Shown here: piece by piece, positions 7,259-22,364 of the stretch
How positions within the stretch are numbered: the first letter of the stretch is position 1
Layout: every line of letters starts with the position of its first letter
DNA from: Trichodesmium erythraeum IMS101
GTDB taxonomy: Bacteria > Cyanobacteriota > Cyanobacteriia > Cyanobacteriales > Microcoleaceae
Direction of reading: 5' to 3'
Assembly (NCBI RefSeq): GCF_000014265.1
Contig: NC_008312.1
Coordinates: 1,290,001-1,322,000, forward strand
DNA: 32,000 nucleotides
The notes under the pieces: model-generated
Told to the model about the DNA's origin: nothing
The model's database searches: none
The model's input: the letters and a program-made list of their open reading frames with translations, nothing else
Made by a program: the position numbers and the translations under genes

Positions 7259-8650
7259 TTATTGAAACTCTCGTTTAATTGATTTTGCCCATAATAAAAA
7301 CGGTATTACACCACCTCCTAATAATGCTGCTAATGTGAATAAAAAAATGATGATTCTAGTCAGAGGAGGTAGGGAGCGCGACACCCAAGGAAATACATAA
7401 GGCTCTAATTCAGAATCTACTAAATTATTAGGCAACTTAAAACTAACTTGTACATTATGTAATGAGCCACGGTCAGCATTTATTGGTTGAATATAATTAA
7501 TTTGATACTCATCAAATAAAGCCTCTAAAAATTCGGTCAAACTGGTAGAAATATTTTCAGCATTTCCCGAAAATTCAGCAATACCATTAGTTACTCCTGC
7601 GATTTGTTGTAGTCGCCTTTGATCAACAAATTCTTCAGCAGCAACTTCTCTTAATTTCTCTGATCCATTACTTTTTTTTCTGCCTCTTTTACTAATATCT
7701 CTAATAGTTGGAGATTGCTTTAAATCATATTTTTGTTGCAACTGTTGGGGAGTCAAACCATAACCTAAAGTATGCACAGTAATATTAGGATAACTTTTTA
7801 ACATAAACATCATTTTTTCAAAATCTTGTGCTTCTAATTCTGGTTCATTTTCTCTATTTCCATAAATACTATGATAGCCATCAGAAAGTAAAATTATTGA
7901 ACGTCTTGGCTGAGGTAAATTAGAATTTATTGGTAAGTTAAAACGAGTATCTTCAGGATTACCAAAAAATTGTACTGCCTGACGCAAAGGTTCATAAATA
8001 TCTGTAGCTGCACAAAGATTATCTAGTTTACTCTCTAATTTATTGAGAGTCTGTTCGACCTTTTTTTTACCAGCTAAAACAAAATTATCTAGTTGTTTTT
8101 TCCTGACTTGATTTCCCGGACAATTTTTACCTCCTTTGCCAAAGGGCACGATGGAAATTCTGGTATTTTCTCCCTTTTTAGCTAAATCTTGATTGAACTT
8201 TCTAATAGCAGCGATCGCTCCTTCTAATTTAGTTTTTTCTCCACTACTATCCAATTGTTTCATACTGCCACTAAAATCTAATAAAACAATTACCCAAGCC
8301 GGAGGTAATTCTTTAGGTTGAGGAATTTTCAAATTAATATCTGCCTGGTTTAAAGTTTGACATTCTCCAGTTTTAGGGTCAGATTTTGGCGGACAAACTG
8401 TTAAGTTAAACTCATTTTTTTGCATACCTCTTATTGGTTTATTTTTTTGGTCGTAGACTTTAACCCGGAGGGTGACTTTTCCTTCATTTCTATCAGGAAT
8501 AGCCTCAATTATTTCCAGATTTTTGACTTTAGCAAAAACAGGATTAATGTAGCAAATTACTATTAATAAAGATAGACTAAGATCCCGGGCAAAAAAATAG
8601 ATTTTAGTAGACAAATATGAATAATTTTTTAGAATTAACATTTTCAGCAT
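7259..8650 (-). CDS. von Willebrand factor type A (vWA) domain protein with N-terminal signal-like segment and C-terminal TM anchor
   Basis: 463-aa ORF. MIDAS motif D-F-S-G-S (nt 8264-8278), with later CAATD and ILLSDG motifs. Signal-like LSLSLLIVICYINPVFA and a C-terminal hydrophobic LTRIIIFLFTLAALLGGGVIPFLLWA. The true start is uncertain because the first ~25 codons overlap a gene relic. Confidence 0.85.
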   Translation of the reverse strand: MLKMLILKNYSYLSTKIYFFARDLSLSLLIVICYINPVFAKVKNLEIIEAIPDRNEGKVTLRVKVYDQKNKPIRGMQKNEFNLTVCPPKSDPKTGECQTLNQADINLKIPQPKELPPAWVIVLLDFSGSMKQLDSSGEKTKLEGAIAAIRKFNQDLAKKGENTRISIVPFGKGGKNCPGNQVRKKQLDNFVLAGKKKVEQTLNKLESKLDNLCAATDIYEPLRQAVQFFGNPEDTRFNLPINSNLPQPRRSIILLSDGYHSIYGNRENEPELEAQDFEKMMFMLKSYPNITVHTLGYGLTPQQLQQKYDLKQSPTIRDISKRGRKKSNGSEKLREVAAEEFVDQRRLQQIAGVTNGIAEFSGNAENISTSLTEFLEALFDEYQINYIQPINADRGSLHNVQVSFKLPNNLVDSELEPYVFPWVSRSLPPLTRIIIFLFTLAALLGGGVIPFLLWAKSIKREFQ

Positions 8651-9045
8651 TAAATGTAATTAAGTCGTTATATTTGAGTTGAATTGGTGTACTTTCAGTC
8701 AGGCGATCGCCAAGATATTCTATTCTATTAAAAAAGTTGAGATTACGTACTAGAATTATTTGGCTAGATGGGAGGTATAAGTCAGCAATATGTAATAGTA
8801 AACCGGGAAAAAATATTCATCCAAAATTGTTAAATGCCTAAAATTTTAATTTGAGCTGAACCTATTTTAAGTTTGCTTTTAGGAGGTAATTGAATGGATA
8901 TTTTTTTTTCTTCAATTTTATCGGTTAAGTCATTACTAAAAAAATTATTCTGGAAAATAATTATTTATGAATATGGGGATAATTACTAGATATTTTATTT
9001 TGACTAATATTGAAATTTTTAAGGTCTTTAAAACCTTTTCCAGCA
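8562..9045 (-). pseudogene. Decayed duplicate of the 3' third (FHA-like domain) of the 9865-10983 gene
   Basis: Clear nucleotide similarity over the whole stretch to 9850-10345 (for example GGTGTACTTTCAGT(C/T)A(G/A)GCGATCGCC and TATCGGTTAAGTCATTACT), including the region around the stop codon. The reading frame is broken, and no corresponding ORF appears in the track. Confidence 0.7.
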
Positions 9046-9129
9046 GATAATTAAGTTATACAATATATGTTGAAATATGTTAATTATATCTATATTTCAA
9101 TCCTCCCATCTCTCTACTTCCCCTACTCG

Positions 9130-9747
9130 TTATTTAACCCCAGTGAGAATTGCTACTAAAATTTTCATTAAATCTTCTAAATCATTAGGTACTCGATATA
9201 AATTTAGGTCTTGTTTAACTTCCTTGTCAAGTCGTTTCAAAAGAGCAAATTGCCAAATTTTTCCTATAGAAACAGCTCCATATAATAAATTTTGTGCTGG
9301 TTCTGTTCTTTTATCAAGAGCAATTAACTCAACTGCTAGTTGCTTAAAACCTCTTTCTAAGTTTTCATCCTTAGCCTCAATAACTAATAAATTATTTCCC
9401 GCTTGTAAAAAATAATCTAGAGAACCTCTAAGCTGAGGTTCAACTTCTAAAGGATAGGAAACTTTGAGTTGAGCCTGACAATAATCAACTAATTCTATCA
9501 AGACTGGAGCAATTAAAAATTCTCGCTTTGCTATCTCACTATCTAAAGTAATATAAGGGAGACTTTTACGAAATCTTTGCTTGAGATTTTCTAACCCATT
9601 AATTTGTCGTTGAGACTTGGGTAAAACTAATTCTTCTTTAATTAATTGATAACCAAAGTAATTTAAGATATCCTCCGGGTAATAATTAAATTTGAAATAA
9701 TCTGAAAAGTTACAACTATCAGGTAGTTCAATTCGTATATTTATCAT
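9130..9747 (-). CDS. Hypothetical protein with PD-(D/E)xK-like motif (HsdR-N-like nuclease fold candidate)
   Basis: 205-aa ORF. GSLDYFLQAGNNLLVIEAKDENLERGFKQ fits the D...E-x-K pattern of restriction-endonuclease-fold proteins. The assignment rests on the motif only. Confidence 0.6.
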   Translation of the reverse strand: MINIRIELPDSCNFSDYFKFNYYPEDILNYFGYQLIKEELVLPKSQRQINGLENLKQRFRKSLPYITLDSEIAKREFLIAPVLIELVDYCQAQLKVSYPLEVEPQLRGSLDYFLQAGNNLLVIEAKDENLERGFKQLAVELIALDKRTEPAQNLLYGAVSIGKIWQFALLKRLDKEVKQDLNLYRVPNDLEDLMKILVAILTGVK

Positions 9748-9864
9748 AGTTTTTACCCATATTAATACTCTTCTTTAATTTCTTTGAGCTTTTGTAATGT
9801 ATTCCTAACTACCCGTTATAGAGATTTTACTTCCTTTACTTTTTTATAAATTAATAAATATAGA

Positions 9865-10983
9865 CTAACCTTGGGGATCCAAAAAGCGATTATAGTAAAC
9901 AAATCTGAATAATTTTTGATTGTTATAGATACCATTTTCAGCATGAAATGTAATTAAATCATTATGTTTAAGTTTAATTGGTGTACTTTCAGTTAAGCGA
10001 TCGCCTTGATATTCTATTCTATTAAAAAATTTCAGATTAGGCACTAGAATTGTTTGGCTAGGTTCTAGATCTAAATCAGCAATATGTAATGGTAAACCGG
10101 GAATACAAATATTTACCCCAAATTGTTGATTACCGAAAATTTTAAGTTGAGCTGAACCTATTTTAACTTTACCTCTAGGAGGTAATTGAATAGATAATCC
10201 TTCTTCAATTTTATCGGTTAAGTCATTACTCACAAATTTCAATCTAGGTAATAATTCTTTTTGAATATGAGGATAATTATTAGGTGTTTGATACTGACTA
10301 ATATCGAGATTTTCAATATATTCAAAACCTGCTCCAGCTCTGAGGGCAACTAGATGACTTGGAGAAGTAGAAAAGCTCAATACTAAACCTAACAAACCAC
10401 CCAACAAAGAAAACCCTATTGTGTCTTCCCAAGCTTTTAAAGCTATAGGCATTCCTCCCATTTTATGTCGTATCCATTCAAAGATAATAGCTGCTAATAA
10501 AGCAGTTAAAATACTGGTGCCCAAGCTAATAGTAAGTCGTTGCCAAAAACGCCTTTTATCTCCTGCTTCTATACTGCGCCATCGCCAAGTCAAACCTTCG
10601 GCTAAACCCACTGCTCCTCCAATTAATATCCAGCCAACTATTCTGACAAATTCATCGGGTATAGTTATGACTTTATCTCGTAATTGTGGATTAAGTAATA
10701 TTTGTACTAATGCTCCAGAAGTAATACCAATTAAAAATCCTAATCCTCCAGCAATACTTAGGGGTATTATACCTCTGCTGAAGTTCCGTTTAAACCGAGT
10801 GGGATTACTTAAAAATATATCCGTAGCTACTATGCCAACTGCTAGGGAAATTGCAATACAAGGAAATAATGCTAGTTCGGGAATTTTTTTGAACCAGCCT
10901 AGATCACTGAGGATAAATTGCCCTATGCTCCAACCTATTAATGCGGATGTAATGCCTGACAGAATATATAGGTATATTCTCAT
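9865..10983 (-). CDS. Polytopic membrane protein with C-terminal degenerate FHA-like beta domain
   Basis: 372-aa ORF. The N-terminal ~215 aa contain multiple hydrophobic helices. The C-terminal KIGSAQ...NICIPGLPLHIADLDLEP...ILVPN...RIEYQGDRL...IKLKHNDLITF resembles an FHA domain but lacks the canonical Arg/Ser residues. Confidence 0.7.
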   Translation of the reverse strand: MRIYLYILSGITSALIGWSIGQFILSDLGWFKKIPELALFPCIAISLAVGIVATDIFLSNPTRFKRNFSRGIIPLSIAGGLGFLIGITSGALVQILLNPQLRDKVITIPDEFVRIVGWILIGGAVGLAEGLTWRWRSIEAGDKRRFWQRLTISLGTSILTALLAAIIFEWIRHKMGGMPIALKAWEDTIGFSLLGGLLGLVLSFSTSPSHLVALRAGAGFEYIENLDISQYQTPNNYPHIQKELLPRLKFVSNDLTDKIEEGLSIQLPPRGKVKIGSAQLKIFGNQQFGVNICIPGLPLHIADLDLEPSQTILVPNLKFFNRIEYQGDRLTESTPIKLKHNDLITFHAENGIYNNQKLFRFVYYNRFLDPQG

Positions 10984-11137
10984 AATTTCAGATTAATTTT
11001 GATTTTTATAGAGTTGACTTAACTAGTATTTTTAACACTGATCCGTGGATGATTAAAGGAATAAACAATCAAGAAGAAATCATATTTTTTTTCATTCTCT
11101 TGTTATTCTCAAAAACTTTATAAGTATTCAGTCCTCG

Positions 11138-11179
11138 GCTATCAGCTATCAGCTATCAGTTATGAGTTATTAGCTCATT
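11138..11179. repeat. STRR-like heptamer tandem repeat (GCTATCA x3, then degenerate units)
   Basis: Reads GCTATCAGCTATCAGCTATCAGTTATGAGTTATTAGCTC. Related heptamer runs occur at 17743-17759 and 24120-24140. Such repeats are characteristic of heterocystous cyanobacteria. Confidence 0.7.
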
Positions 11180-11781
11180 ATAAAGGAATGTTATGTAATT
11201 GGTCATCAGGTAACCTTAGTATTTACTTCTATAAATTCTCAAACTGAGAGCTAACTGCTAATAGCTGAATTCTTAACCCCAAAAGGATACTCTATAAACC
11301 AGATTTAGTATTAGTTACTTTGGATAAGCTAATATAAATTATTTTCCATTTCTGTATAAATCAATTAATTTTATTTACTAGGATAATTTTTCACTTAGAT
11401 AATCAAAAAAAAAGCTCAAAAAACTCAAAATATAGCTTGACAAAATATATTTGACAAGATATTATAAACATAATGGAAAAGATGTGCTCATATATAGTAA
11501 TTAAGTTATGTACTCATAAGTTTAGAAATGCCTAGGATAGACTATAAATTTACTCCTTATGTTTACCTGAATGACTCAACTTATTTAGTTTGTTTCCTCA
11601 GCTTTTAATCATTTTTAGTATTTCTTTTCATCATCACCAAATCAATCAATAGAATTATAAACATATACTATATAACCAGCTTCTATATTATATGGAATTC
11701 ATTTTCTGACTCGGTTTATGTATCCAATATCGAATAGAGAAAATAGGCGATCGCTTATTTCAGACTAAAGTAGGAATATAA

Positions 11782-12578
11782 CTACCGAACTTGCTCCCTA
11801 AGCCATCCCCGTATTATAAGCTCCGGTTCCACACCCAAGGCTTTTAACTGCTCTGCCAAGGGTTCGGCCCGTTGACGTTCTTGTTCAGCTAGCCCACATC
11901 CTGTCAGCAAAAGATTTTCTTGGCTATCCCATCAACGCAACCAAGGCCAGACTTGGCTTTGATGTTTGCCTTCCCAGATACCAAGCTCTACCCCCAAAGA
12001 TTTTATAGGATAACGTTTGCCTTCATTTGGGAGTATTTTTTGATAGTAACCATGTACCAAATTATATACTTCCACACGCGCCTTTTGAACTTCATATATG
12101 TGATAAAAAGGTGCACAAATTCCTTGTTCATAAACCAAAAAATTACCTTTTTCCTTGGTGTTTTTTCTCTCTCTTCTGACCAGTCTCCAGAAAAAAATTC
12201 TAATACAATTAATGGGTTGATTAATTCCTTCTATAAAACAGAAGAACGACGTAATTTACCATCTAATTTTTGTAGCACATTCGGTACATAAAAACAGTCA
12301 GGATAAACAGAACTTTTTTCTGGTGTTTCTGTTGCTTTAGTGATGCGCCAATAAATGGCACTATCTCGACCGACGCAGTATTTATCATCGGGATAAATTT
12401 GTTGCAAAATTGGAGTAATAGAATGAGTTAATAAATCTCCTTGTGGAGGTTCTTGAAAATTTTTCACAAAGTCCTGATCCTTGTCGGAGAATTGAGTTTG
12501 GTCTGGTAAACTTTTTGATAAATTAGAAGTAGGTAATAAATTAAAGGATTTTTCTGTTGGTTTAGTTATTGAATTCAT
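11782..12578 (-). pseudogene. Uma2-family (DUF820) endonuclease pseudogene
   Basis: The N-terminal part (115-aa ORF 12231-12578) and the central part (68-aa ORF 11932-12138, EVYNLVHGYY...LGIWEG) lie in different frames. An in-frame TGA then precedes the typical family tail WDSQENLLLTGCGLAEQERQRAEPLAEQLKALGVEPE, which I translated by hand down to the stop at 11782. Confidence 0.7.
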
Positions 12579-12712
12579 ATTAATTTTAAAGTTACAAACT
12601 TAGGCAGGTTTTATAGAATAATTTTCCTGATATTACCTTTGAAATTATTATAGTAGTTTCTTTAAAAGATTACTTAAAAGGTTAGTAGTCTAGTAATCAG
12701 CAAAATACATAG

Positions 12713-12848
12713 AAAGCTATTGAAGTAACAGAAAAATTTTCAGCAAATTGTCTGAATATTATTCCTAATATTGGCTGTATATAAAGCTATTGAAGTAACA
12801 GAAAAATTTTCAGCAAATTGTCTGAATATTATTCCTAATATTGGCTGT
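12713..12848 (+). repeat. Perfect 66-bp direct repeat, two copies with 70-bp period
   Basis: AAAGCTATTGAAGTAACAGAAAAATTTTCAGCAAATTGTCTGAATATTATTCCTAATATTGGCTGT occurs at 12713-12778 and again at 12783-12848, separated by ATAT. Confidence 0.95.
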
Positions 12849-13102
12849 GAAGTTTATGCGTAAAAAAAATAATTTTGTTGACTATCAAAATGGCAAAGGC
12901 ATCAGTTTTTATCAACATAAAACACAGTCCTAAGAACAAAACTCTGAAGATTTTATGAAACGTCTTTACTTTGGTTTACCTAAGTAAAAATTCTTCTTAT
13001 AAGAAATTTATAGAAATTGAATAGCATCAAAAAAAGCTGACGACTGGTAACTTAAATGAAGACTGACTGCTAATAGCTAACTTCTATAACTATAGATAAT
13101 TT

Positions 13103-15283
13103 TTATCCACAACGTTGAGGTCGTGTTTGTAAATTAATTTCTAACAAGTCTGCAAGATCGCACTTTAATTTATCTGCCGTTTTCTTATTCGGTTCTATGT
13201 AGCCAAAACCATCACTAAAAAATTTTTTTTGATAGGAATAAATTGCTCCTATCCACTGCTTTTTCACCACTAAATATTTATCTTCTTCCCCGATAACATC
13301 ATCTTTATAGCCTGCGATATACTGAATTTTTACATCATTTTCTAGAATCTCATGAATAGCTTTAATAATTTCTAAACGCGCATCTTCTGTTGTCAATAAC
13401 GTCGAATTTTGATTTAATAATTCTACCTCTAACTCCCGAACAATTTTTTGAATTTCTCTCCTCGTAGTGGAAAACTTTTCTAGTGCTTTTTCCATTTTTT
13501 CCGTCGAAAGTTCACTCACAGTATTTTTTTCTACATCAGTTAATATTTCTTCTGAGGAAAGGGGATATTCTTGAGTTTTCCTTTCAACAATATTTCCACT
13601 ATTAAGCTTACCTACCTGATATCCTAAAATAAAAAACAAACCATGAGAAAACATAATCAGAAAAGTTGCTGCTACTGACCGTCTATATTTTCTAATTAAT
13701 ATAGTAATATGGTCAGAAAAATCTAATTCCCTTTCAACAGTTAACCCAAAAATAATTGTTTGATAAAAATATTTGAGTTTCGGAAACGCGGCGGTAAAAA
13801 TTTCTTTTGGTACTTTTCCATTGCTAATTTGGTGAAAATAAGCTGCTAACTCATAATCAGATAGTTGATAAAATAAATCGGCAAAAGGTTGATAATAATT
13901 GGAGGTTTTCTGAGAGGTTTTCTGATAGGAGGAGGAAGTTTTATCCCAACGATTTTTTAGAAAATCAATTAACTTTTTCCAAGTAGCATTTCCATACACT
14001 AATTCATCTTTTTGTTGACCAGGATTTTTGTGTAATAGACTATTTTCTAAAGATTTTAAATCCTGGCGAACTTGTTGTTTAATTATGCTCGAATGTGCTG
14101 ACCATAAACTGTCTTGATTTTTTAAAAGACAACAGTAGTCAGTAACAGATATTTTTTTTCCTAAGATTTGAGATAAGACATGATTTGCTCCTAAGATGAT
14201 TAATGGTTCTAATAATTTTTTATAATTTCTCAGTTGTAATTGTAATTGTCTGGAAATTTTTTGCTTTTCATTTTCTTTCTTTCTATGCCTACTAATATTT
14301 AACCAATTTAGATATTCTGGTAAACTCTCAGGAATAAAAATTGCCCTTAAAGTTAATAACCTAATCATCTGAGCATTAGCATTTCCTTGTTTTATCCCAT
14401 TAGTCGCTCCCAGGTTATCAAATAAATTGTTTAAATATTCTGATGTAATTTGACCATTCTGTAATTTTAAAACTAAATTTTCTATCCATTCTTGCTTGAT
14501 TTTAGAGCCACTAATTAATCCTTTAATTGCTGTTTCTATAGCAGCTTCATCTATATATCTTGAGGTATTACTAGAAGAATTTTTAATCATTTTTGTCTGT
14601 ATTTTTGTCAGGTTTGCTGCTACTTCTGCATTGGCTGGATGAATAATTATAAATTGTTCTGGTCGCTCAACAGCTTCAAGATTATAAATCCATGATATGG
14701 GGAGATCATTGGCTTTTAATTCAGCCATTTTATTCAGAATTTGTAAGTCAGATAATTTAGTAGAAATTATGACTGGGAAAGTTGTAGTGTTCAGCCAATT
14801 TTGCCAATTTTTAGGTAAATTTATTTCTGGTTTTTTTGTGACTTGATGTTTGTTTGGTTTTCCAATCTGTTTAGTTTCAGATGGATTAAATATTGGATTA
14901 ATTCCCTGTTGCTGCTGAATATTTATCCAATCTAATATTTGCCAAATATTATCTTTTCCAGTACATAAAAAATAACGATAAAAAGAAGTAGAACGACTAT
15001 ATTCATCTTGCCCAGATGTCACTACCGCAACTACTGAATAATCTGGTTCTTTATCGTTCATACTTAACACAACTCGCCCAACAAAAGTAGGTTCTTGACT
15101 ATGGCGATCTTTGCCGACTTCAAATCCTTTATTGGCAATTGCTCTTGCTAGAGAATAGGGAATTTTTGGCAAGGTTAAATTCATATATTCTCCTACTTTA
15201 AATCCCCGGGAAATCCATTGACCGTTGGGTAATATTTCGGGAATTATGCCTGTGCTAAACTCGTGAATTTCAATATTTTTCAT
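13103..15283 (-). CDS. 726-aa partner of the paired NTPases: N-terminal alpha/beta region, long helical middle, one TM segment, C-terminal coiled-coil region (possible GAP1-like GTPase-associated protein)
   Basis: Long uninterrupted ORF in the same orientation as the two NTPase genes and downstream of them. Hydrophobic VAATFLIMFSHGLFFILGY lies at about nt 13612-13677. Heptad-like charged stretches follow (EKALEKFSTTRREIQKIVRELEVELL). The GAP1 assignment is an inference and was not verified. Confidence 0.8.
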   Translation of the reverse strand: MKNIEIHEFSTGIIPEILPNGQWISRGFKVGEYMNLTLPKIPYSLARAIANKGFEVGKDRHSQEPTFVGRVVLSMNDKEPDYSVVAVVTSGQDEYSRSTSFYRYFLCTGKDNIWQILDWINIQQQQGINPIFNPSETKQIGKPNKHQVTKKPEINLPKNWQNWLNTTTFPVIISTKLSDLQILNKMAELKANDLPISWIYNLEAVERPEQFIIIHPANAEVAANLTKIQTKMIKNSSSNTSRYIDEAAIETAIKGLISGSKIKQEWIENLVLKLQNGQITSEYLNNLFDNLGATNGIKQGNANAQMIRLLTLRAIFIPESLPEYLNWLNISRHRKKENEKQKISRQLQLQLRNYKKLLEPLIILGANHVLSQILGKKISVTDYCCLLKNQDSLWSAHSSIIKQQVRQDLKSLENSLLHKNPGQQKDELVYGNATWKKLIDFLKNRWDKTSSSYQKTSQKTSNYYQPFADLFYQLSDYELAAYFHQISNGKVPKEIFTAAFPKLKYFYQTIIFGLTVERELDFSDHITILIRKYRRSVAATFLIMFSHGLFFILGYQVGKLNSGNIVERKTQEYPLSSEEILTDVEKNTVSELSTEKMEKALEKFSTTRREIQKIVRELEVELLNQNSTLLTTEDARLEIIKAIHEILENDVKIQYIAGYKDDVIGEEDKYLVVKKQWIGAIYSYQKKFFSDGFGYIEPNKKTADKLKCDLADLLEINLQTRPQRCG

Positions 15284-15630
15284 TTCCTAATACTAATTCA
15301 CTTCAATACTTCAATACTGATAAATAAAAATAATTTGTAGGGGTTTTGCAAAACTATTCCACTAAAATATTGAAGCAAAGATTTGCGGAATAAATTTTGA
15401 TTTAATACTAATTTTTATGGATTAGTTTTATATTGACATGATGCTTCAGTTCTTAATTAATTAAGACAAGGGCAAACAGGAAAAATAGTCAATTAATTTG
15501 ACTGAAATATTTGCAAAAATTGCTGTCAATACTGGGTGGATAGATGTATCTAAAATATCACCTAACTTTTAATTTTTTAGTTTTTGCTTTTAACTTTTAA
15601 ATTTTAAATTTTGCCTTTCACAAACTAGTA

Positions 15631-16536
15631 TTAATCTTGCTCTAAATGTAAATTACGCTTACCTGTACAAATCCAATATATAGGAGAAACTAAACCAAAA
15701 GGTCGCCATTTTTTTGAGTCTCCTAATACAGATGCTACCCCGCTACGATCGCGATAAATTTCTTCAGAATTTGGTTGAAAATATTTATTTTGATTTCTTG
15801 TTGCGCCAAAAGCAGAAGTTGTAAAATATTCCACATTTCCCATTCCTAAATCTTGCCAAGATTCTAATCTTTTAAAAATAGTAGGAAATCTGGCTTTTAA
15901 CAAAAATTTTGGTTTGTGTCTATTTCCCCATAAATCTGCTAATTCACACTTAGTTAATACTAGAGCAATTCGCCGTTTTTGACTGAAAATATTTCCCCCT
16001 GCTAATGCTACTAAAAGTTGATCAACTCCTCTGGCATATTCTAAGTCTTTACGATGAGTTGTACCATCAATCATTAACATAATTCCTGTGGCGGGAAAAC
16101 AATCATTTAAGTAGTCTCGGAGTAGCTGACTATTTGTTTCTTGAAGTACATCGCTGAAAAATTCTCCAGAATAATCTTTGCAACTAATATCTAAGTTTAA
16201 AACGGTGTTTGAAAATTTGGAATTATCTGTTTTTTTCAGAACAATTCTTAAACTATAATCCTTAATTTCTAGCACGTCACTAGCTAAACGAGTTGGTTCA
16301 ATTTGTAATCCTTTTTCTATCAAGTCTTGTGCCTGTCTAATTAAAGATTCTCCGTCTTTATTTGCTGGAGTAACTAACTCGACTGGACTCGATATATCGG
16401 CATTTGGCCACCTAGCTAAAGCAGCCATATAAGTCGTTTTTCCCGCGGCGCGATCGCCTATTACCCGTAAAACTCCAGAATGATTTTCGACTTTTAATTC
16501 TTGATTATTTCTGGGTTTAAATATAGATTTAAACAT
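15631..16536 (-). CDS. Divergent Ras-like (TRAFAC-type) P-loop NTPase, paralogue B
   Basis: 301-aa ORF. Walker A GDRAAGKT (nt 16435-16458), IEPT, D-Y-S-G-E, T-K-C-E where NKxD is expected, S-A-F-G, and a C-terminal W-R-P-F-G-x3-P-I-Y-W motif. Confidence 0.85.
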   Translation of the reverse strand: MFKSIFKPRNNQELKVENHSGVLRVIGDRAAGKTTYMAALARWPNADISSPVELVTPANKDGESLIRQAQDLIEKGLQIEPTRLASDVLEIKDYSLRIVLKKTDNSKFSNTVLNLDISCKDYSGEFFSDVLQETNSQLLRDYLNDCFPATGIMLMIDGTTHRKDLEYARGVDQLLVALAGGNIFSQKRRIALVLTKCELADLWGNRHKPKFLLKARFPTIFKRLESWQDLGMGNVEYFTTSAFGATRNQNKYFQPNSEEIYRDRSGVASVLGDSKKWRPFGLVSPIYWICTGKRNLHLEQD

Positions 16537-16594
16537 TCTAAATAATTAAAATTTTTTTGATTTTAACTGATTTGAACTTTTGAATGGATGACTT

Positions 16595-17410
16595 TTAACT
16601 TTTCATATACTGACCTTTACTTAACCAGTATAAAGGAGGAATAATTCCATAAGGTTTCCATTTCAAAGGTTCCCGTAAAATTGAGTGAGAACTGCCTAAT
16701 TCATCTGTACGATTTGGACGGGGGTCATTTCGATGTAAAACACCAAAGGTAGATATAGCATAAAACTGTAAATTTTGCTGAGGAATACGCTTTTTTAAAA
16801 TATTTGTTGTTCTGGGTAAATGAACTTTAAATATATCTAATTCTGGGTCAAGACGACCAGGCCATATTTCTCCTCTTTCACATTTACTCATTGCTATGGC
16901 TAGACGTAAATCTTGAGTACGATCTTTTTCATCTATTAAGTTAATAAATTTTTCTATTACGTTACTATAAAATATGTCGTTTCCTGGTTCCCATTTATGG
17001 AGTAAAATTAGACAGCCAAGGTTATCTTTTATCATACATTCATCGAAAAATTCTTGATGTAAAGTGTTAGACATTCCACTTTGTAATTCATTAAAAATTT
17101 CCCCTGGGTAATCTCGGACTACTAGGTTGATTTCTTCTGGTTTTCTTTGCCACCAATGTTTGATTTCTATATGAAAAGAATACAAGGGTAAATCGTAAAA
17201 ACTTTGAATTTTAATTCCGTCGATAATGGTTGGTTCTAAAGAGGCTCCATTTAAAATAATATTCTCCGCTTTAGTAGCTAAATTTTTAGCATCATTAGTA
17301 ATAGCTGTAATTTGAAAGTTAGGATTAGTTTTTTCCGGCCAATAAGCTAATCCTGCTAGATAAGTTGTTTTGCCTGCACCAGTAGGTCCAATAATACAAA
17401 TATTCCCCAT
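16595..17410 (-). CDS. Divergent Ras-like (TRAFAC-type) P-loop NTPase, paralogue A
   Basis: 271-aa ORF. Walker A GPTGAGKT (nt 17366-17389), LEPT, D-Y-P-G-E, S-K-C-E where NKxD is expected, S-T-F-G, and a C-terminal W-K-P-Y-G-x3-P-L-Y-W motif. Lies 58 bp upstream of paralogue B. Confidence 0.85.
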   Translation of the reverse strand: MGNICIIGPTGAGKTTYLAGLAYWPEKTNPNFQITAITNDAKNLATKAENIILNGASLEPTIIDGIKIQSFYDLPLYSFHIEIKHWWQRKPEEINLVVRDYPGEIFNELQSGMSNTLHQEFFDECMIKDNLGCLILLHKWEPGNDIFYSNVIEKFINLIDEKDRTQDLRLAIAMSKCERGEIWPGRLDPELDIFKVHLPRTTNILKKRIPQQNLQFYAISTFGVLHRNDPRPNRTDELGSSHSILREPLKWKPYGIIPPLYWLSKGQYMKS

Positions 17411-18365
17411 TTTTGTTTGGTTAAATCTCTAAGTTTTTAGGTATTTAAACTATACAGTGCTACAGCGCTATGGTCCTACTTTTCTAATGGTAGATAGGAA
17501 CACGCAATGCTTAGTGTGGGAGCAAAATGCTCTGAAATAATTAGAATGGACGGGACAACTATTGTTATCTACCACTATCTATAGTAATTCCCACGGTTAT
17601 AATTTGCCTCGAGATTTTGATAATTTTGATTGACCAGAGAACCAGGGATATGGTTTCTTTGGGGGCTGCTTAATTCTAGTGCTAAATGAGTTTTTCTGAG
17701 GGAGCGATCGCTTCTATAAACTTCTCCCATTTCAGTTATCAGTTATCAGAGATTATTTTTCAATTTTGGTGGTTTTGGCATCATAAATATGTATGAACTG
17801 GTTTACTCAAAAAATGATACTTTTGTCGGGAGGTTCTACCTAACATTTATCTTTTGTGAGTCTGAGTCTTTTCTGTTGTCTAATTTGTCTTAATTATTAT
17901 TAGCAGAATTAGCTATTTTTTCAAGGGCTGGCATCAGATTCTGTTATCTGAATATATCTATTTGATTTTTCAATTATTCGACTTTTTTTCTGGTAATTAC
18001 AAGGTTTTTATGGTCTTTATTAATTCCCTCAGATTCTGTTTTCTGACTATATCTATTAATAACAATTTAATTGACTTAGGTTACACTACTGTCTATTAGC
18101 TGCAAATTTAAAATAATTTCCTCAAACTACTGAGGGTGTCAAAGTTTTGATTTTTTTAAATCTGATTTTTGAATTTTCAATTTTTCGATTTTTTAACTTT
18201 TTTTCTGGTAATTTATAGGCAATAAATGTCAAATAATTTCCTCAAACTAATGAGGGTATCAAAGTTCTTGATTTTGATTTTTGATTTTTGGTTAGCTATG
18301 TATTTCATGTCTGACTAAGTGCAGTTAACCTAATAATATGTTATACATATTTTATTCCTTATTCC

Positions 18366-21300
18366 TTGATTAAGTCAATGCTGTTTAACCCCTTTCTCCG
18401 TAAATTGCGTTTTTTGCTGCTGTTGTTGTTGGTGCTGTTGGTGGTAAATTTGGGGCATGTTCGAGCTTCTGAGGAGTCACCGCCGGCAGACTGGCAACTC
18501 CAGGGAATATTGGCGGCGTTGGATGATCCTGATCCTGATGTTTGGGTTAAAGCTTTGAAGAAAATGTCTGAGTATGACCTTAAACCTGTTGAAATTTCAT
18601 CAGAGCGGGTTGAACAAATTGGAAAATTGCTGAGTCATGAAAATTGGCATGTCCGTTCTGCAGCAGCAAGGGCAGTGGGTGAGATGGGGGCGGAGGCTAA
18701 AGTTTTGATTCCCCAGTTGCTGCAGTTGTTCAGGGATGAAAATTCGGGTGTCCGTTCTGCAGCAGCAAGGGCAGTGGGTGAGATGGGGGCGGAGGCTAAA
18801 GTTTTGATTCCCCAGTTGCTGCAGTTGTTCAGGGATGAAAATTCGTATGTCCGTGAAGCAGCAGTAAGGGCAGTGGGTGAGATGGGGGCGGAGGCTAAAG
18901 TTTTGATTCCCCAGTTGCTGCAGTTGTTCAGGGATGAAAGTTCGGGTGTCCGTTCTGCAGCAGCAAGGGCAGTGGGTGAGATGGGGGCGGAGGCTAAAGT
19001 TTTGATTCCCCAGTTGCTGCAGTTGTTCAGGGATGAAGATTCGTATGTCCGTTCTGCAGCAGCAAGGGCAGTGGGTGAGATGGGGGCGGAGGCTAAAGTT
19101 TTGATTCCCCAGTTGCTGCAGTTGTTCAGGGATGAAAGTTCGGGTGTCCGTTCTGCAGCAGCAAGGGCAGTGGGTGAGATGGGGGCGGAGGCTAAAGTTT
19201 TGATTCCCCAGTTGCTGCAGTTGTTCAGGGATGAAAGTTCGTATGTCCGTTCTGCAGCAGCAAGGGCAGTGGGTGAGATGGGGGCGGAGGCTAAAGTTTT
19301 GATTCCCCAGTTGCTGCAGTTGTTCAGGGATGAAAATTCGTATGTCCGTGAAGCAGCAGTAAGGGCAGTGGGTGAGATGGGGGCGGAGGCTAAAGATTTG
19401 ATTCCCCAGTTGCTGCAGTTGTTCAGGGATGAAAATTGGTATGTCCGTTCTGCAGCAGTAAGGGCAGTGGGTGAGATGGGGGCGGAGGCTAAAGATTTGA
19501 TTCCCCAGTTGCAGCAGTTGTTCAGGGATGAAAATCCGTATGTCCGTGAAGCAGCAGCAAGGGCAGTGGGTGAGATGGGGGCGGAGGCTAAAGTTTTGAT
19601 TCCCCAGTTGCAGCAGTTGTTCAGGGATGAAAATTCGGGTGTCCGTTCTGCAGCAGCAAGGGCAGTGGGTGAGATGGGGGCGGAGGCTAAAGTTTTGATT
19701 CCCCAGTTGCAGCAGTTGTTCAGGGATGAAAATTCGGGTGTCCGTTCTGCAGCAGCAAGGGCAGTGGGTGAGATGGGGGCGGAGGCTAAAGTTTTGATTC
19801 CCCAGTTGCTGCAGTTGTTCAGGGATGAAAGTTCGTATGTCCGTGAAGCAGCAGCAACGGCAGTGGGTGAGATGGGGGCGGAGGCTAAAGATTTGATTCC
19901 CCAGTTGCAGCAGTTGTTGATGGATGAAAATTCGGATGTTCGTGAAAAAGCAGCACGGGCAGTGGGTAAGATAGGAAAATTAAATACTCAGCAGATTTTA
20001 CCAATTTTAAACGCAGCTCATAGAAACCGAGATAAAGAAGCAACACTTCGTTTTCTCGCCTACTTTGTCAGTGGTGGAGAATATGATGCCCTTACCCTAA
20101 CTAAATGGTTAGGTTCACCAGAACAATATCCTTATCAAATAGATAAATTTAAGAATGAACGCCCCATTAGCCACGAAGAAGGCAAAAAAGTCTTAGAGCT
20201 TTTTGCAGAAATTTGGAAACCAAGTCAGTCCTTAGAATACTTACCTTTTGAATTGGAACGACAAATTAACATAGTAGTCGAAAAAGTAGATTGGCAACCA
20301 GAAGATCTGCCCCTACTCAAGAAACACTACAACAACCTCAAAGACGAAGACATCAACGCCAAAATAGTCGCCTTACAAGGAATACAATGGTTCTCCTACC
20401 TCTGGAAATTTCTACTCCTTCACGCCTTGACTTGGCTCATCCTCCTCTGCCTCTATGCCAAATCTCCCGAAATTCAAACCCTATTCTGGCATCCCCAGAT
20501 TCGCAAAATTGCCGGACTCGGTTACATCGGTTTATTACTCACCTGGATACCATCCCTCCGCCGCCTACTCTTTTCCCCCTTCCAACCCATTCTCATCGCA
20601 GACGCTGACCTCGACAGTTTCAACCCCCAAGATTACTTTTCCGACTCCAACGTTTGTCTCCAAAATACCCACAACCTACAACCCATCAAAACCACCATTG
20701 CCAAAATCCAATCTCCCATTGTCCTCCAAGGAGAATCAGGTCTCGGCAAATCAATGTTCCTGCGGCACTGGGCGAAAACCCGCAAAAATCTAGTAGTTTA
20801 CTTACCCGCCAGCAAATGTGCCCAAGGAGCGATCGCCGCCATCCAAAGCAAAATACCCATATCTCAAACAGACCCCAAATTCCTCAAAAGGCTGATTTAC
20901 AATAACGCCCTCGAAATTTGTATTGACGGTCTCAACGAAGTCACCCCCGACACCCGCACAAAAATTAGTTATTTTGTCGAGAGTCACTTCCGGGGTCATA
21001 TACTCCTAGCAACACAACCCCTATATTGGATCCCACCCTCAACAACCAAAACCTATGTTCTCCAACCATTGAAGCGTGAGCAAATTCGACAGTTTCTCCA
21101 GACTCGTCAATTTAACCCATCGGCAGAACCTTCAATTTCCCGGTCTGAATATGAAGAAGCTTGCGAAGAATACCTCGGAAAAACCTTCAATTCACAGAAG
21201 CAGTCAGAAGAAGAGCAGAAAACAGTACGTCGGTTACTATCAAACCCCATGGACTTAACTATTGTAGCCCAAATTCTTGCCCAGGGGAAAACCCCGGACT

Positions 21301-22364
21301 TGCTCAACCTGCAACAACAGCAGTATAAAGTCATGGCAGCAGAATACAAAGAGGTTAATTTTGATTCTTTTCCACTAACAGAGTTTGCCGAAACAACATA
21401 TCAGATGCGTCTCAACGATGAAATCAATATTCCGTCGGAGTGGAAAAAAGAACTCCAGACCATGGAAAAATACAAAATGGTTTTGCGCCGTCAAAAGTAT
21501 GTGGAAAATGACGTCGGTTCTCAATGGTATTTCCGCCATGATAAAATTCAAGAATATTTTATCGTCCAGACATTTATCGGTGAGGAAAATCAAAAATTAG
21601 AGGAACATATTGACGATCCCAGGTTTCGAGGAGTTTATCTATTATTAGCAACCCTCCTACCCTACCTAGAAGCCTGGTCACTGCGAGAGAAATTATTACA
21701 AAATGCAGCCGAAACCAAAGACCATGTTGTTAGCGACCAATTTATTCAACGCTTAAATTCTCGGTCGGAATTATCCAAAAATGGTGAGAATGTATACTTA
21801 AAGGAGTTAATAGAAGTTATGAAATTGCTTATTGCTGAGAAAAATAATAATATAAATAAGGAGTTGACAGAATTGACGAAATTGTTTATTACTGAGAAAA
21901 ATAATAATATAAATATTGAAGTTAACCCTAATATTGAAGCAAACCCTAATACGAGGAATAATTCAATGACAGATAATTCTGAATCAAAATATAACTTTAG
22001 CCAAGCCAGAGTTGGTAACGTAGTCGAAACAAATAATGGCAGTATGGGTAATGTAGTCGAGAAAGCCGAAAGTGGCAGTCAAGTTGTAGGAACTCAAAAT
22101 AACTATGGTTCCCAAGAAAAGCAAACCCTCGCCGAAGCCGCCGCCGAAATTCAAAAATTATTGAAACAATTAGAATTAAATAACCCCGCCGCGACAGACG
22201 CAGAAAAAGAAGCATTTGTCACCGCCTCCATTCCCCCAAACAACCGCCAACGTTTTGTCGGAGCATTGCAAGCATTAGGCAAAGAAGCCCTCAAAGAACT
22301 ATTAGATAACCCTTATATTAATGTGGGAGTAGCCACTGTTGAAGGGTGGCAAAACCCTAAATAA
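18366..22364 (+). CDS. NLR-like protein: signal/anchor segment, HEAT (PBS-lyase-type) repeat array, two hydrophobic segments, NACHT-type STAND NTPase, low-complexity region and conserved helical tail
   Basis: 1332-aa ORF with a TTG start at 18366 (alternative ATG at 18378). Has 13-14 33-aa HEAT-like repeats and hydrophobic segments at 20388-20459 and 20508-20558. Walker A GESGLGKS (20730-20753), Walker B LEICIDGLNEV, ILLATQP and the NACHT-typical NPMDLTIVAQIL are present. The tail reads QTLAEAAAEIQKLLKQLE...NPYINVGVATVEGWQNPK. Confidence 0.85.
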   Translation: MIKSMLFNPFLRKLRFLLLLLLVLLVVNLGHVRASEESPPADWQLQGILAALDDPDPDVWVKALKKMSEYDLKPVEISSERVEQIGKLLSHENWHVRSAAARAVGEMGAEAKVLIPQLLQLFRDENSGVRSAAARAVGEMGAEAKVLIPQLLQLFRDENSYVREAAVRAVGEMGAEAKVLIPQLLQLFRDESSGVRSAAARAVGEMGAEAKVLIPQLLQLFRDEDSYVRSAAARAVGEMGAEAKVLIPQLLQLFRDESSGVRSAAARAVGEMGAEAKVLIPQLLQLFRDESSYVRSAAARAVGEMGAEAKVLIPQLLQLFRDENSYVREAAVRAVGEMGAEAKDLIPQLLQLFRDENWYVRSAAVRAVGEMGAEAKDLIPQLQQLFRDENPYVREAAARAVGEMGAEAKVLIPQLQQLFRDENSGVRSAAARAVGEMGAEAKVLIPQLQQLFRDENSGVRSAAARAVGEMGAEAKVLIPQLLQLFRDESSYVREAAATAVGEMGAEAKDLIPQLQQLLMDENSDVREKAARAVGKIGKLNTQQILPILNAAHRNRDKEATLRFLAYFVSGGEYDALTLTKWLGSPEQYPYQIDKFKNERPISHEEGKKVLELFAEIWKPSQSLEYLPFELERQINIVVEKVDWQPEDLPLLKKHYNNLKDEDINAKIVALQGIQWFSYLWKFLLLHALTWLILLCLYAKSPEIQTLFWHPQIRKIAGLGYIGLLLTWIPSLRRLLFSPFQPILIADADLDSFNPQDYFSDSNVCLQNTHNLQPIKTTIAKIQSPIVLQGESGLGKSMFLRHWAKTRKNLVVYLPASKCAQGAIAAIQSKIPISQTDPKFLKRLIYNNALEICIDGLNEVTPDTRTKISYFVESHFRGHILLATQPLYWIPPSTTKTYVLQPLKREQIRQFLQTRQFNPSAEPSISRSEYEEACEEYLGKTFNSQKQSEEEQKTVRRLLSNPMDLTIVAQILAQGKTPDLLNLQQQQYKVMAAEYKEVNFDSFPLTEFAETTYQMRLNDEINIPSEWKKELQTMEKYKMVLRRQKYVENDVGSQWYFRHDKIQEYFIVQTFIGEENQKLEEHIDDPRFRGVYLLLATLLPYLEAWSLREKLLQNAAETKDHVVSDQFIQRLNSRSELSKNGENVYLKELIEVMKLLIAEKNNNINKELTELTKLFITEKNNNINIEVNPNIEANPNTRNNSMTDNSESKYNFSQARVGNVVETNNGSMGNVVEKAESGSQVVGTQNNYGSQEKQTLAEAAAEIQKLLKQLELNNPAATDAEKEAFVTASIPPNNRQRFVGALQALGKEALKELLDNPYINVGVATVEGWQNPK
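18639..20024 (+). repeat. In-frame tandem array: 13 near-identical 99-bp units (18639-19925) plus one degenerate unit
   Basis: The unit GAAAAT(TCG/TGG/CCG)...CGT(TCT/GAA)GCAGCAG(C/T)AAGGGCAGTGGGTGAGATGGGGGCGGAGGCTAAAG(T/A)TTTGATTCCCCAGTTGC(T/A)GCAGTTGTTCAGGGAT repeats with a 99-bp period. It encodes E(N/S/D)(S/W/P)(G/Y/H)VR(S/E)AA(A/V)RAVGEMGAEAK(V/D)LIPQL(L/Q)QLFRD. Confidence 0.95.

Follow-up and report, generated by a model that had tools for sequence, protein, structure and literature searches.

A cyanobacterial gene cluster built around two DO-family GTPases and a single-pass membrane protein in Trichodesmium erythraeum IMS101, the probable core of an envelope-spanning signalling system

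Three co-oriented genes at nucleotides 13103 to 17410 of a 32,000-nucleotide stretch of Trichodesmium erythraeum IMS101 DNA (NC_008312.1, positions 1,290,001 to 1,322,000; the whole stretch is called the window hereafter) raise the question of what a pair of related GTPase-like proteins, G1 and G2, does beside a large membrane protein, here named BIG. An original prediction, made from the letters alone, had proposed a GTPase-centred conflict system belonging or related to the class built on two DO-GTPases and a large associated protein, GAP1, or equally an undescribed family. The GTPase half of this proposal stands, while the GAP1, GASH and FNIII partners of that class were not recovered; the fallback of an undescribed family comes closest, both for BIG and for the system as a whole. 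The reading that we prefer, and consider rather probable, is that the trio forms the cytoplasmic core of a larger, mobile and envelope-spanning signalling system of DO-family GTPases that is restricted to cyanobacteria, is reduced and interrupted in this genome, and probably plays an accessory role in conflict or envelope stress.

The three open reading frames (ORFs) lie where they had been placed, all on the minus strand:

G1, 16595-17410, minus strand: soluble DO-GTPase-family paralogue of 271 amino acids (aa), with the P-loop GPTGAGKT and the motifs EPT, DYPGE, SKCE and STFG.
G2, 15631-16536, minus strand: soluble DO-GTPase-family paralogue of 301 aa, with the P-loop GDRAAGKT and the motifs EPT, DYSGE, TKCE and SAFG.
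BIG, 13103-15283, minus strand: single-pass membrane protein of 726 aa.

The spacers of 58 bp (G1-G2) and 347 bp (G2-BIG) follow from these coordinates. G1 and G2 are indeed paralogues, being 24% identical across their full length (BLASTP E = 8e-32), a likeness far above chance. All the motifs that had been listed for them were found in the translations, namely (G1 / G2) GPTGAGKTTY / GDRAAGKTTY, LEPT / IEPT, DYPGE / DYSGE, SKCE / TKCE, STFG / SAFG and WKPYGIIPPLYW / WRPFGLVSPIYW, and the motif residues are mostly invariant among 26-28 orthologues. The closest matches come from Trichodesmium metagenome-assembled genomes, in which BIG is 81-82%, G2 94% and a neighbouring gene 93% identical.

The family of the two NTPases was evaluated with the Pfam Double-GTPase models PF19975 (DO-GTPase1) and PF19993 (DO-GTPase2). 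G2 passes both curated cutoffs (34.7 bits with PF19993 and 33.0 bits with PF19975; cutoff 27). The window G1 is below the cutoff (21.7 bits); its orthologues match PF19975 in 28 of 28 cases at E <= 0.01 (best E = 1.2e-10) and PF19993 in 27 of 28. The same two domains are precomputed for homologues of G2, some of which carry the name 'TRAFAC clade GTPase domain-containing protein'. DO-GTPases are defined as a TRAFAC family with a conserved Walker B glutamate (Kaur et al. 2020, PMC7159879), and the D, G and E of DxxGE are invariant in an alignment of G1 (DYPGE), G2 (DYSGE) and X249 (D[TS]PGE), a third paralogue described below. The Pfam matches and the invariant glutamate place the pair in the DO-GTPase family, as had been predicted. 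Both proteins score about equally on the two models. The two published DO-GTPase types mirror the type of the co-occurring GAP1 (Kaur et al. 2020, PMC7159879), and we infer that DO-GTPase1 and DO-GTPase2 of Pfam map to these types and not to two paralogues of one operon. Neither G1 nor G2 contains zinc ribbons or hydrophobic segments, and both start at the P-loop or after a short tail. Profile searches returned no solved structural relative of the GTPases. A housekeeping GTPase identity was rejected, Pfam and NCBIfam giving P-loop-level matches alone (Era, EF-Tu, SRP54, FlhF-type), far below cutoff. The ratio of nonsynonymous to synonymous substitution rates (dN/dS), calculated here and below against Dapis and Okeania orthologues, was 0.09-0.14 for G1 and 0.16-0.20 for G2; a comparison of G1 with locus L001 (omega 1.29, dN 2.5) was disregarded as an alignment artefact caused by a truncated or divergent match.

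Is the trio a unit of its own, or part of something larger? Starting from an alignment of BIG homologues, a pattern-based detection, which undercounts, gave 119 loci in 185,579 species-level genomes, and 79 loci were kept. A lineage is given for 76 of these, in every case a cyanobacterial one; represented are Nostocales, Oscillatoriales, Pleurocapsales, Chroococcales, Spirulina, Leptolyngbya and Prochloraceae. Synteny was scored by tblastn with the window proteins and by de novo clustering of ORFs, the denominators being loci with enough flanking sequence. The trio is strongly syntenic: 64 of 66 loci contain G1, 60 of 66 G2 and 59 of 66 both, one subclade (L019-L021, L027, L069) having G1 and missing G2. 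The guess that neighbouring membrane proteins matter was right, and two of them, TM372 (44 of 56 informative loci) and VWA (43/56; both together, 43/56), are conserved partners. X249, a third and shorter GTPase paralogue (GDRAAGKT, D[TS]PGE, NKAD), precedes G1 in 56 of 62 informative loci. The order G1-G2-BIG-TM372-VWA and the strand are constant among loci. The boundaries first drawn were too narrow, as the conserved unit runs downstream to 7259 and upstream to a remnant of X249. The further members of the unit in the window are:

X249 remnant, about 17575-17730, minus strand: 51 codons before a stop, with the P-loop GDRAAGKT changed to SDRSLRKT.
TM372, 9865-10983, minus strand: six transmembrane (TM) helices, then a cytoplasmic FHA-fold domain (aa ~255-367, ~nt 9883-10221).
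VWA, 7259-8650, minus strand: 463 aa, with a signal or anchor at the N-terminus, a vWA domain, and a TM anchor plus basic tail at the C-terminus.

In compact versions of the cluster the genes overlap or sit a few bases apart, which suggests co-translation. Beyond the cluster itself no conserved flanks were found, and the flanks vary between genomes.

In the AlphaFold (AF2) model of TM372 (predicted local distance difference test, pLDDT, 83) a beta domain comes after six TM helices. With this C-terminal domain as query, each of the top 26 Foldseek matches in the PDB is an FHA domain; the probability is 1.00 for 25 of these, and target TM-scores are mostly 0.5-0.6. Two source annotations also call TM372 homologues 'FHA domain-containing protein'. 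No Pfam model matches TM372, that for FHA included; its best PDB profile match is the Ki-67 FHA domain (E = 0.076), and hhalign against the ZnR-FHA proteins of related clusters gave no match; the FHA fold is seen in the structure model. The domain is predicted to be cytoplasmic because strongly basic loops follow TM2 and TM4. VWA matches Pfam VWA_2 (32.3 bits, cutoff 27), and its metal ion-dependent adhesion site (MIDAS) is complete (D125-x-S127-x-S129, T216, D257) and invariant in 26 orthologues. Hydrophobic segments stand at both of its ends, and the signal-like N-terminus together with the C-terminal TM anchor and its basic tail predict a periplasmic vWA domain. The dN/dS values are 0.13-0.17 for TM372 and 0.24-0.25 for VWA.

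Complete versions of the cluster extend downstream, with two to five periplasmic ARC6-like IMS-domain proteins, one of them fused to a beta-lactamase-like domain (serine hydrolase), two further vWA proteins and a 127-aa protein. Some loci carry a ZnR-FHA protein, a Ser/Thr kinase or a VirD4-like ATPase too. The latter, a VirD4/TraG-like coupling-protein ATPase, lies directly upstream of X249 and on the same strand in seven loci (e.g. L030 3877-5421, L040 3853-5448, L056 3798-5381), with a gap of 3-4 bp in two loci, and is itself preceded by a conserved ORF of ~130 aa. The hosts are mostly filamentous or colonial, and T. erythraeum-type genomes contain a second cluster version that is compact and complete.

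The cluster is also carried by eight cyanobacterial plasmids, six of which are typed as mobilizable or conjugative. On plasmid B of Anabaena variabilis ATCC 29413 (NC_007411.1, L082, 35.8 kb) it fills about half of the molecule (10-17781 and 33628-35751), the genes of the block all running in one direction and the block ending with FHA, PP2C and ZnR-kinase-TPR genes; a literature search on the Ava_B locus tags of this plasmid found no functional study. Near-identical blocks occur on plasmids of Tolypothrix PCC 7601 and 7712 and of Microchaete NIES-3275. A divergent subtype on a mobilizable Nostoc plasmid has the same gene order and a GTPase 37% identical to G2. Beside the divergent subtype on plasmid pNsp_h of Nostoc sp. 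ATCC 53789 (L083), a dynamin-family protein is divergently encoded at 7310-9955. A permissive search of plasmids with G2 returned cyanobacterial systems only, and no viral relatives were found on IMG/VR contigs.

What, then, is BIG? Its AF2 model (pLDDT 84.5; predicted TM-score, pTM, 0.64) agrees with the architecture originally proposed, an alpha/beta N-terminal region, a helical middle and a coiled-coil-like C-terminus:

BIG residues 1-218: alpha+beta domain, then alpha/beta domain.
BIG residues 219-500: helices.
BIG residues 534-560 (~nt 13604-13684): TM helix.
BIG residues 594-713: helical C-terminus.

The proposed TM segment corresponds to a single hydrophobic stretch at residues 536-554 (~nt 13622-13678), and in the model a disordered linker separates the TM helix from the helical C-terminal region. 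Because basic residues precede the TM helix, the N-terminus is predicted to be cytoplasmic and the C-terminus periplasmic. PG_binding_1 gives no match in the window BIG itself and sub-threshold matches in BIG homologues (E = 0.0063, the best of 2 of 54 members, 0.00025 and 0.0035); these weak signals would agree with a periplasmic C-terminus. The BIG family comprises 556 representatives at 50% clustering and, among the matches listed, all the named homologues are cyanobacterial and annotated as hypothetical protein. The N-domain is the best-conserved part, with 50% identity among distant members, comparable to the GTPases, against 8-25% beyond the TM helix. The dN/dS of BIG is 0.32-0.41. At nonsynonymous sites the evolutionary rate of BIG is two to three times that of its partners. 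Thirteen loci hold tandem second copies of BIG, full or partial (L023, L025, L026, L044, L046, L049, L057, L061, L063, L065, L068, L077, L080).

Membership of the published class, one of the options of the original prediction, would make this partner GAP1. In that explanation the cluster would be a canonical DO-GTPase/GAP1 conflict system in which BIG, a GAP1-N2-type protein that has diverged very far and bears a TM segment in its C-terminal part, would gate effectors together with the GTPase dimer. BIG does lie directly downstream of the DO-GTPase pair, as GAP1 does, and has three successive regions followed by a TM segment; moreover, the vWA, kinase and PP2C genes of one GAP1-N2 theme occur in complete cyanobacterial clusters. 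However, the GAP1-N1, N2, M and C models gave no match at E <= 1 with any of 54 BIG homologues, and a precomputed GAP1 domain is borne by none of the 120 BIG homologues listed, nor by their neighbours. Searches with BIG itself against Pfam, NCBIfam, PADLOC and PDB sequences found no match. These results indicate that BIG is not a recognisable GAP1. The published GAP1-N1 subtype includes a GASH-domain helical protein and effectors linked via EAD1 or GAAD, and the GAP1-N2 subtype an FNIII-repeat protein and a GTPase with N-terminal zinc ribbons or TM helices (PMC7159879). No Pfam match to fn3 (FNIII), GASH or EAD1/GAAD was obtained in the window proteins or in complete clusters, the GTPases here have neither zinc ribbons nor TM segments, and both paralogues fit neither type clearly. 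Cyanobacteria, furthermore, are not among the main lineages listed for either subtype (Kaur et al. 2020, PMC7159879). A divergent GAP1 system is rather unlikely on this evidence; the system matches neither published subtype and differs from both in its constant partners and its phylum.

Structure comparison gave another lead. The best PDB matches of BIG in Foldseek are to TagF, at probabilities of 0.89 and 0.60 (9t0n first, with E = 0.14 and probability 0.89, followed by chains of 6iz8 and by 2qnu); six TagF chains are among the top 16 matches, a folliculin-complex chain appears at low probability, and no fold match reaches E <= 0.001. The succession of an alpha+beta and an alpha/beta domain is as reported for A. 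baylyi TagF, and as we read the model the N-terminal order beta-beta-alpha-beta-beta-beta-alpha would be that of longin domains. TagF functions through binding an FHA protein (PMC5995506), and domains of the longin and roadblock kinds are well established as platforms for GTPases (PMC3521125, PMC3747258). The TagF/longin assignment of the BIG N-domain is a lead, not a result. In its most far-reaching form it would make BIG a membrane-anchored TagF/longin platform for a DO-GTPase heterodimer or heterotrimer that couples an envelope-sensing, T6SS-type toolkit (type VI secretion system; periplasmic vWA, FHA, Ser/Thr kinase, PP2C) to a GTPase switch, the whole being the main plasmid cargo and acting in phage or competitor defence or kin control of multicellular cyanobacteria. 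We regard this full version as doubtful.

The preferred reading of a trans-envelope GTPase system would work as follows. G1 and G2, joined by X249 in clusters that have it, would act as a heterodimeric, nucleotide-dependent switch, for which the conserved TagF/longin-like N-domain of BIG may serve as membrane-tethered platform or regulator. The periplasmic C-terminal region of BIG and the MIDAS-bearing vWA protein would sense or bind a cue at the envelope or peptidoglycan, and the FHA domain of TM372 would connect the complex with a membrane module of six helices that acts as scaffold or output. In complete versions the Ser/Thr kinase, the PP2C phosphatase and the ZnR-FHA protein might add a threonine-phosphorylation gate, and the further vWA proteins, the ARC6-like proteins and the serine hydrolase would extend the periplasmic arm. 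An accessory role in conflict or envelope stress is favoured over a housekeeping one because the distribution is patchy and plasmid-borne.

Several observations weigh against this scheme. The guanine specificity of G1 and G2 is uncertain because their G4 motif is [ST]KCE (SKCE in G1, TKCE in G2) and not NKxD, the canonical NKAD being found in X249 only. The heterodimer and all the protein contacts are deduced from gene linkage. The TagF/longin likeness of BIG is weak (best E = 0.14, TM-score 0.25) and has no counterpart at the sequence level. In an HMM alignment to Ki-67, itself uncertain, the TM372 family has G-S, L-P-L-H and others at the phosphothreonine-binding positions, whose canonical FHA residues are the Arg of GR, the Ser of SxxH and the Asn of NG; phospho-dependent coupling by TM372 is doubtful since these residues are not conserved, and its FHA domain may be a phospho-independent variant. 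Such a domain is known from type III secretion, where YscD has a phospho-independent, FHA-like cytoplasmic domain. The core proteins match no system model of PADLOC-DB v2, and the cluster lacks any recognisable toxin or nuclease effector, a lack that would be unusual in a defence system. Finally, the core is 50-60% identical across orders and its periplasmic partners are peptidoglycan-related, both of which fit morphogenesis as well.

Could the cluster, then, be an envelope or septum morphogenesis machine of multicellular cyanobacteria, that is, a GTPase-regulated apparatus for peptidoglycan remodelling or cell junctions with no conflict role? The ARC6-like IMS-domain proteins and the beta-lactamase-like serine hydrolase of complete clusters, the weak peptidoglycan-binding signals of BIG homologues, the strongly conserved core of constant composition and the mostly filamentous or colonial hosts are all in favour, as is the lack of a toxin-like effector. 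On the other hand, the distribution looks patchy (119 loci in 185,579 genomes, a count kept low by pattern-based detection), and eight plasmids, mostly mobilizable or conjugative, carry the cluster, which is the main cargo of a 35.8-kb one and has varying flanks elsewhere. Moreover, components have been lost or have decayed in several lineages, the window included, and BIG is tandem-duplicated in about a dozen loci. We judge a purely morphogenetic machine to be improbable and keep to the accessory signalling system.

The cluster in the window is loose and interrupted. The following features lie between its genes:

BIG-TM372 insertion, 11932-12578, minus strand: ORF fragments of 115 aa and 68 aa, window- and lineage-specific.
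o205, 9130-9747, minus strand: ORF of 205 aa between TM372 and VWA, window-specific and not part of the system.
Decayed TM372 duplicate, 8586-9050, minus strand: copy of residues 214-370, disrupted by in-frame stops and a frameshift and directly next to the VWA start.

Upstream of G1, tblastn with X249 orthologues matches the remnant over their residues 1-47 only, at 64-70% identity. BIG and TM372, which are adjacent in other cyanobacteria, are 2.1 kb (2119 bp) apart in the window. The 115-aa ORF in this interval is conserved in Trichodesmium, Okeania and Dapis only. A weak match (E = 0.014) links the 68-aa fragment to the C-terminal end of a Uma2-type endonuclease, which makes the two fragments probably a frameshifted pseudogene; the insertion is outside the system. 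A 70-bp unit repeated twice, with 98-99% identity, lies beside these fragments (fragments and repeat together at 11932-12578, minus strand, and 12709-12848). TM372 and VWA overlap in other genomes and are separated by 1.2 kb (1214 bp) here. This spacer contains o205 between the copies of a ~390-nt direct repeat (8562-8946 and 9850-10239, 78-92% identical), and the decayed TM372 copy is a relic of the ancestral overlap of the two genes. As the duplication preserved both reading frames, the insertion was apparently tolerated without destroying TM372 or VWA. For o205 there is no Pfam match and no positional counterpart in other loci; its sole match, 26% identical, lies upstream of the L023 cluster and on the opposite strand. 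The window has none of the accessory genes for periplasmic proteins, kinase and phosphatase. An Rfam scan of the window gave no structured RNA family at threshold, and promoter and terminator scans gave matches at chance level.

All five window genes are intact, and their dN/dS values of 0.09-0.41 indicate purifying selection despite the insertions. That the cluster of this genome is a decaying, non-functional remnant, as the 51 codons and destroyed P-loop of X249, the spacers of 347, 2119 and 1214 bp with foreign or pseudogenic ORFs and a relic duplicate, and the absence of accessory genes might suggest, is very unlikely given that catalytic and MIDAS residues are invariant, that dN/dS is 0.09-0.25 (0.32-0.41 for BIG), that the duplication at the TM372/VWA junction kept both frames and that genera related to Trichodesmium retain the same five genes in the same loose arrangement.

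The neighbourhood of the cluster contains further large genes. Divergent from it, a 1332-aa protein (18366-22364, plus strand) has N-terminal and central hydrophobic segments and long, regular HEAT repeats, and its HEAT array accounts for a segment of 52% GC at 19001-20000. It shows a weak NACHT/P-loop match (E = 0.01), and its HEAT region resembles the PADLOC model HEAT_CxxC_PD-DEXK. Two genes on the plus strand converge on the cluster end, one for a MACPF/perforin-domain protein (4564-5925, E = 4e-15) and one for a 717-aa protein (1960-4113) with a weak N-terminal lysophospholipase (PLA2_B) match; both products are potentially membrane-attacking. The MACPF, PLA2_B-like, HEAT-NACHT and DAGK proteins were rejected as conserved partners or effectors, since their linkage to the cluster does not extend to other genera, and the HEAT-NACHT protein in particular is unlinked to it outside Trichodesmium. 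The A+T-rich divergent intergenic region contains the direct repeats 18104-18155 / 18224-18275 and 17934-17962 / 18029-18057; the first pair contains a small hairpin (CCTCAnTAGTTTGAGG) and then a T-run.

DO-GTPase systems are a large, purely computational prediction. In line with the original statement that they have no experimental characterisation, a literature search turned up no experimental study of DO-GTPases. The compact and strongly syntenic cyanobacterial variant offers an experimental foothold, and plasmid B of the genetically tractable Anabaena variabilis ATCC 29413, with its 35.8 kb, could let the whole class be tested directly. If the platform reading were true, the cluster would represent a previously unrecognised class of bacterial trans-envelope G-protein signalling, and if the longin/TagF reading held, the combination of a longin platform with paired GTPases, known from eukaryotic Rag/Rab, would extend to a bacterial membrane system. 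For Trichodesmium, the cluster marks a retained and selected accessory module, with genes for a NACHT-type NTPase, a MACPF protein and a phospholipase-like protein in the same region.

How does the cluster compare with known systems? With the DO-GTPase/GAP1 systems (PMC7159879) it shares the Pfam families, the Walker-B glutamate, paralogous GTPases and a large multi-domain protein encoded just downstream; it is likewise membrane-proximal, its hosts are mostly multicellular, and complete clusters share vWA, kinase and PP2C genes with one of the GAP1-N2 themes. It differs in having no detectable GAP1-N1/N2/M/C, GASH, FNIII, EAD or GAAD adaptors and no recognisable effector, and in possessing GTPases without zinc ribbons, usually three GTPase paralogues, and constant 6TM-FHA and periplasmic vWA partners.

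The T6SS post-translational control module (TagF, Fha, PpkA, PppA) resembles the complete clusters in that its five component types would occur together in them, if the weakly TagF-like fold of the BIG N-terminus is counted beside FHA domains, periplasm-facing vWA domains, a Ser/Thr kinase and a PP2C phosphatase. PpkA bears a periplasmic vWA domain. Unlike that module, the cluster has no T6SS structural genes. Its TagF-like domain comes in fusion with a long helical region and a TM anchor, and it is linked to GTPases, proteins that have no part in the regulation of T6SS. With MglB-MglA and with FLCN-FNIP and RagA-RagC it would have in common the longin-type order of the BIG N-domain, as we read it in the model, and two adjacent paralogous GTPases that probably pair in the manner of the Rag GTPases. 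No sequence similarity connects it to these longin/roadblock platforms, the fold match is not significant, and DO-GTPases are another TRAFAC family than Ras/Arf/Rag. The TerY-P triad of Ter-type stress-response loci, reportedly described by Anantharaman, Iyer and Aravind in 2012, is said to consist of vWA, PP2C and Ser/Thr kinase proteins. It is not known to include GTPases, BIG or 6TM-FHA proteins, and the window cluster has neither kinase nor phosphatase, whereas the complete clusters combine vWA, PP2C, kinase and FHA proteins much as the triad does. This set of partners, with a TagF-like platform, FHA, periplasmic vWA, kinase and phosphatase, hints at how DO-GTPases might reach the envelope.

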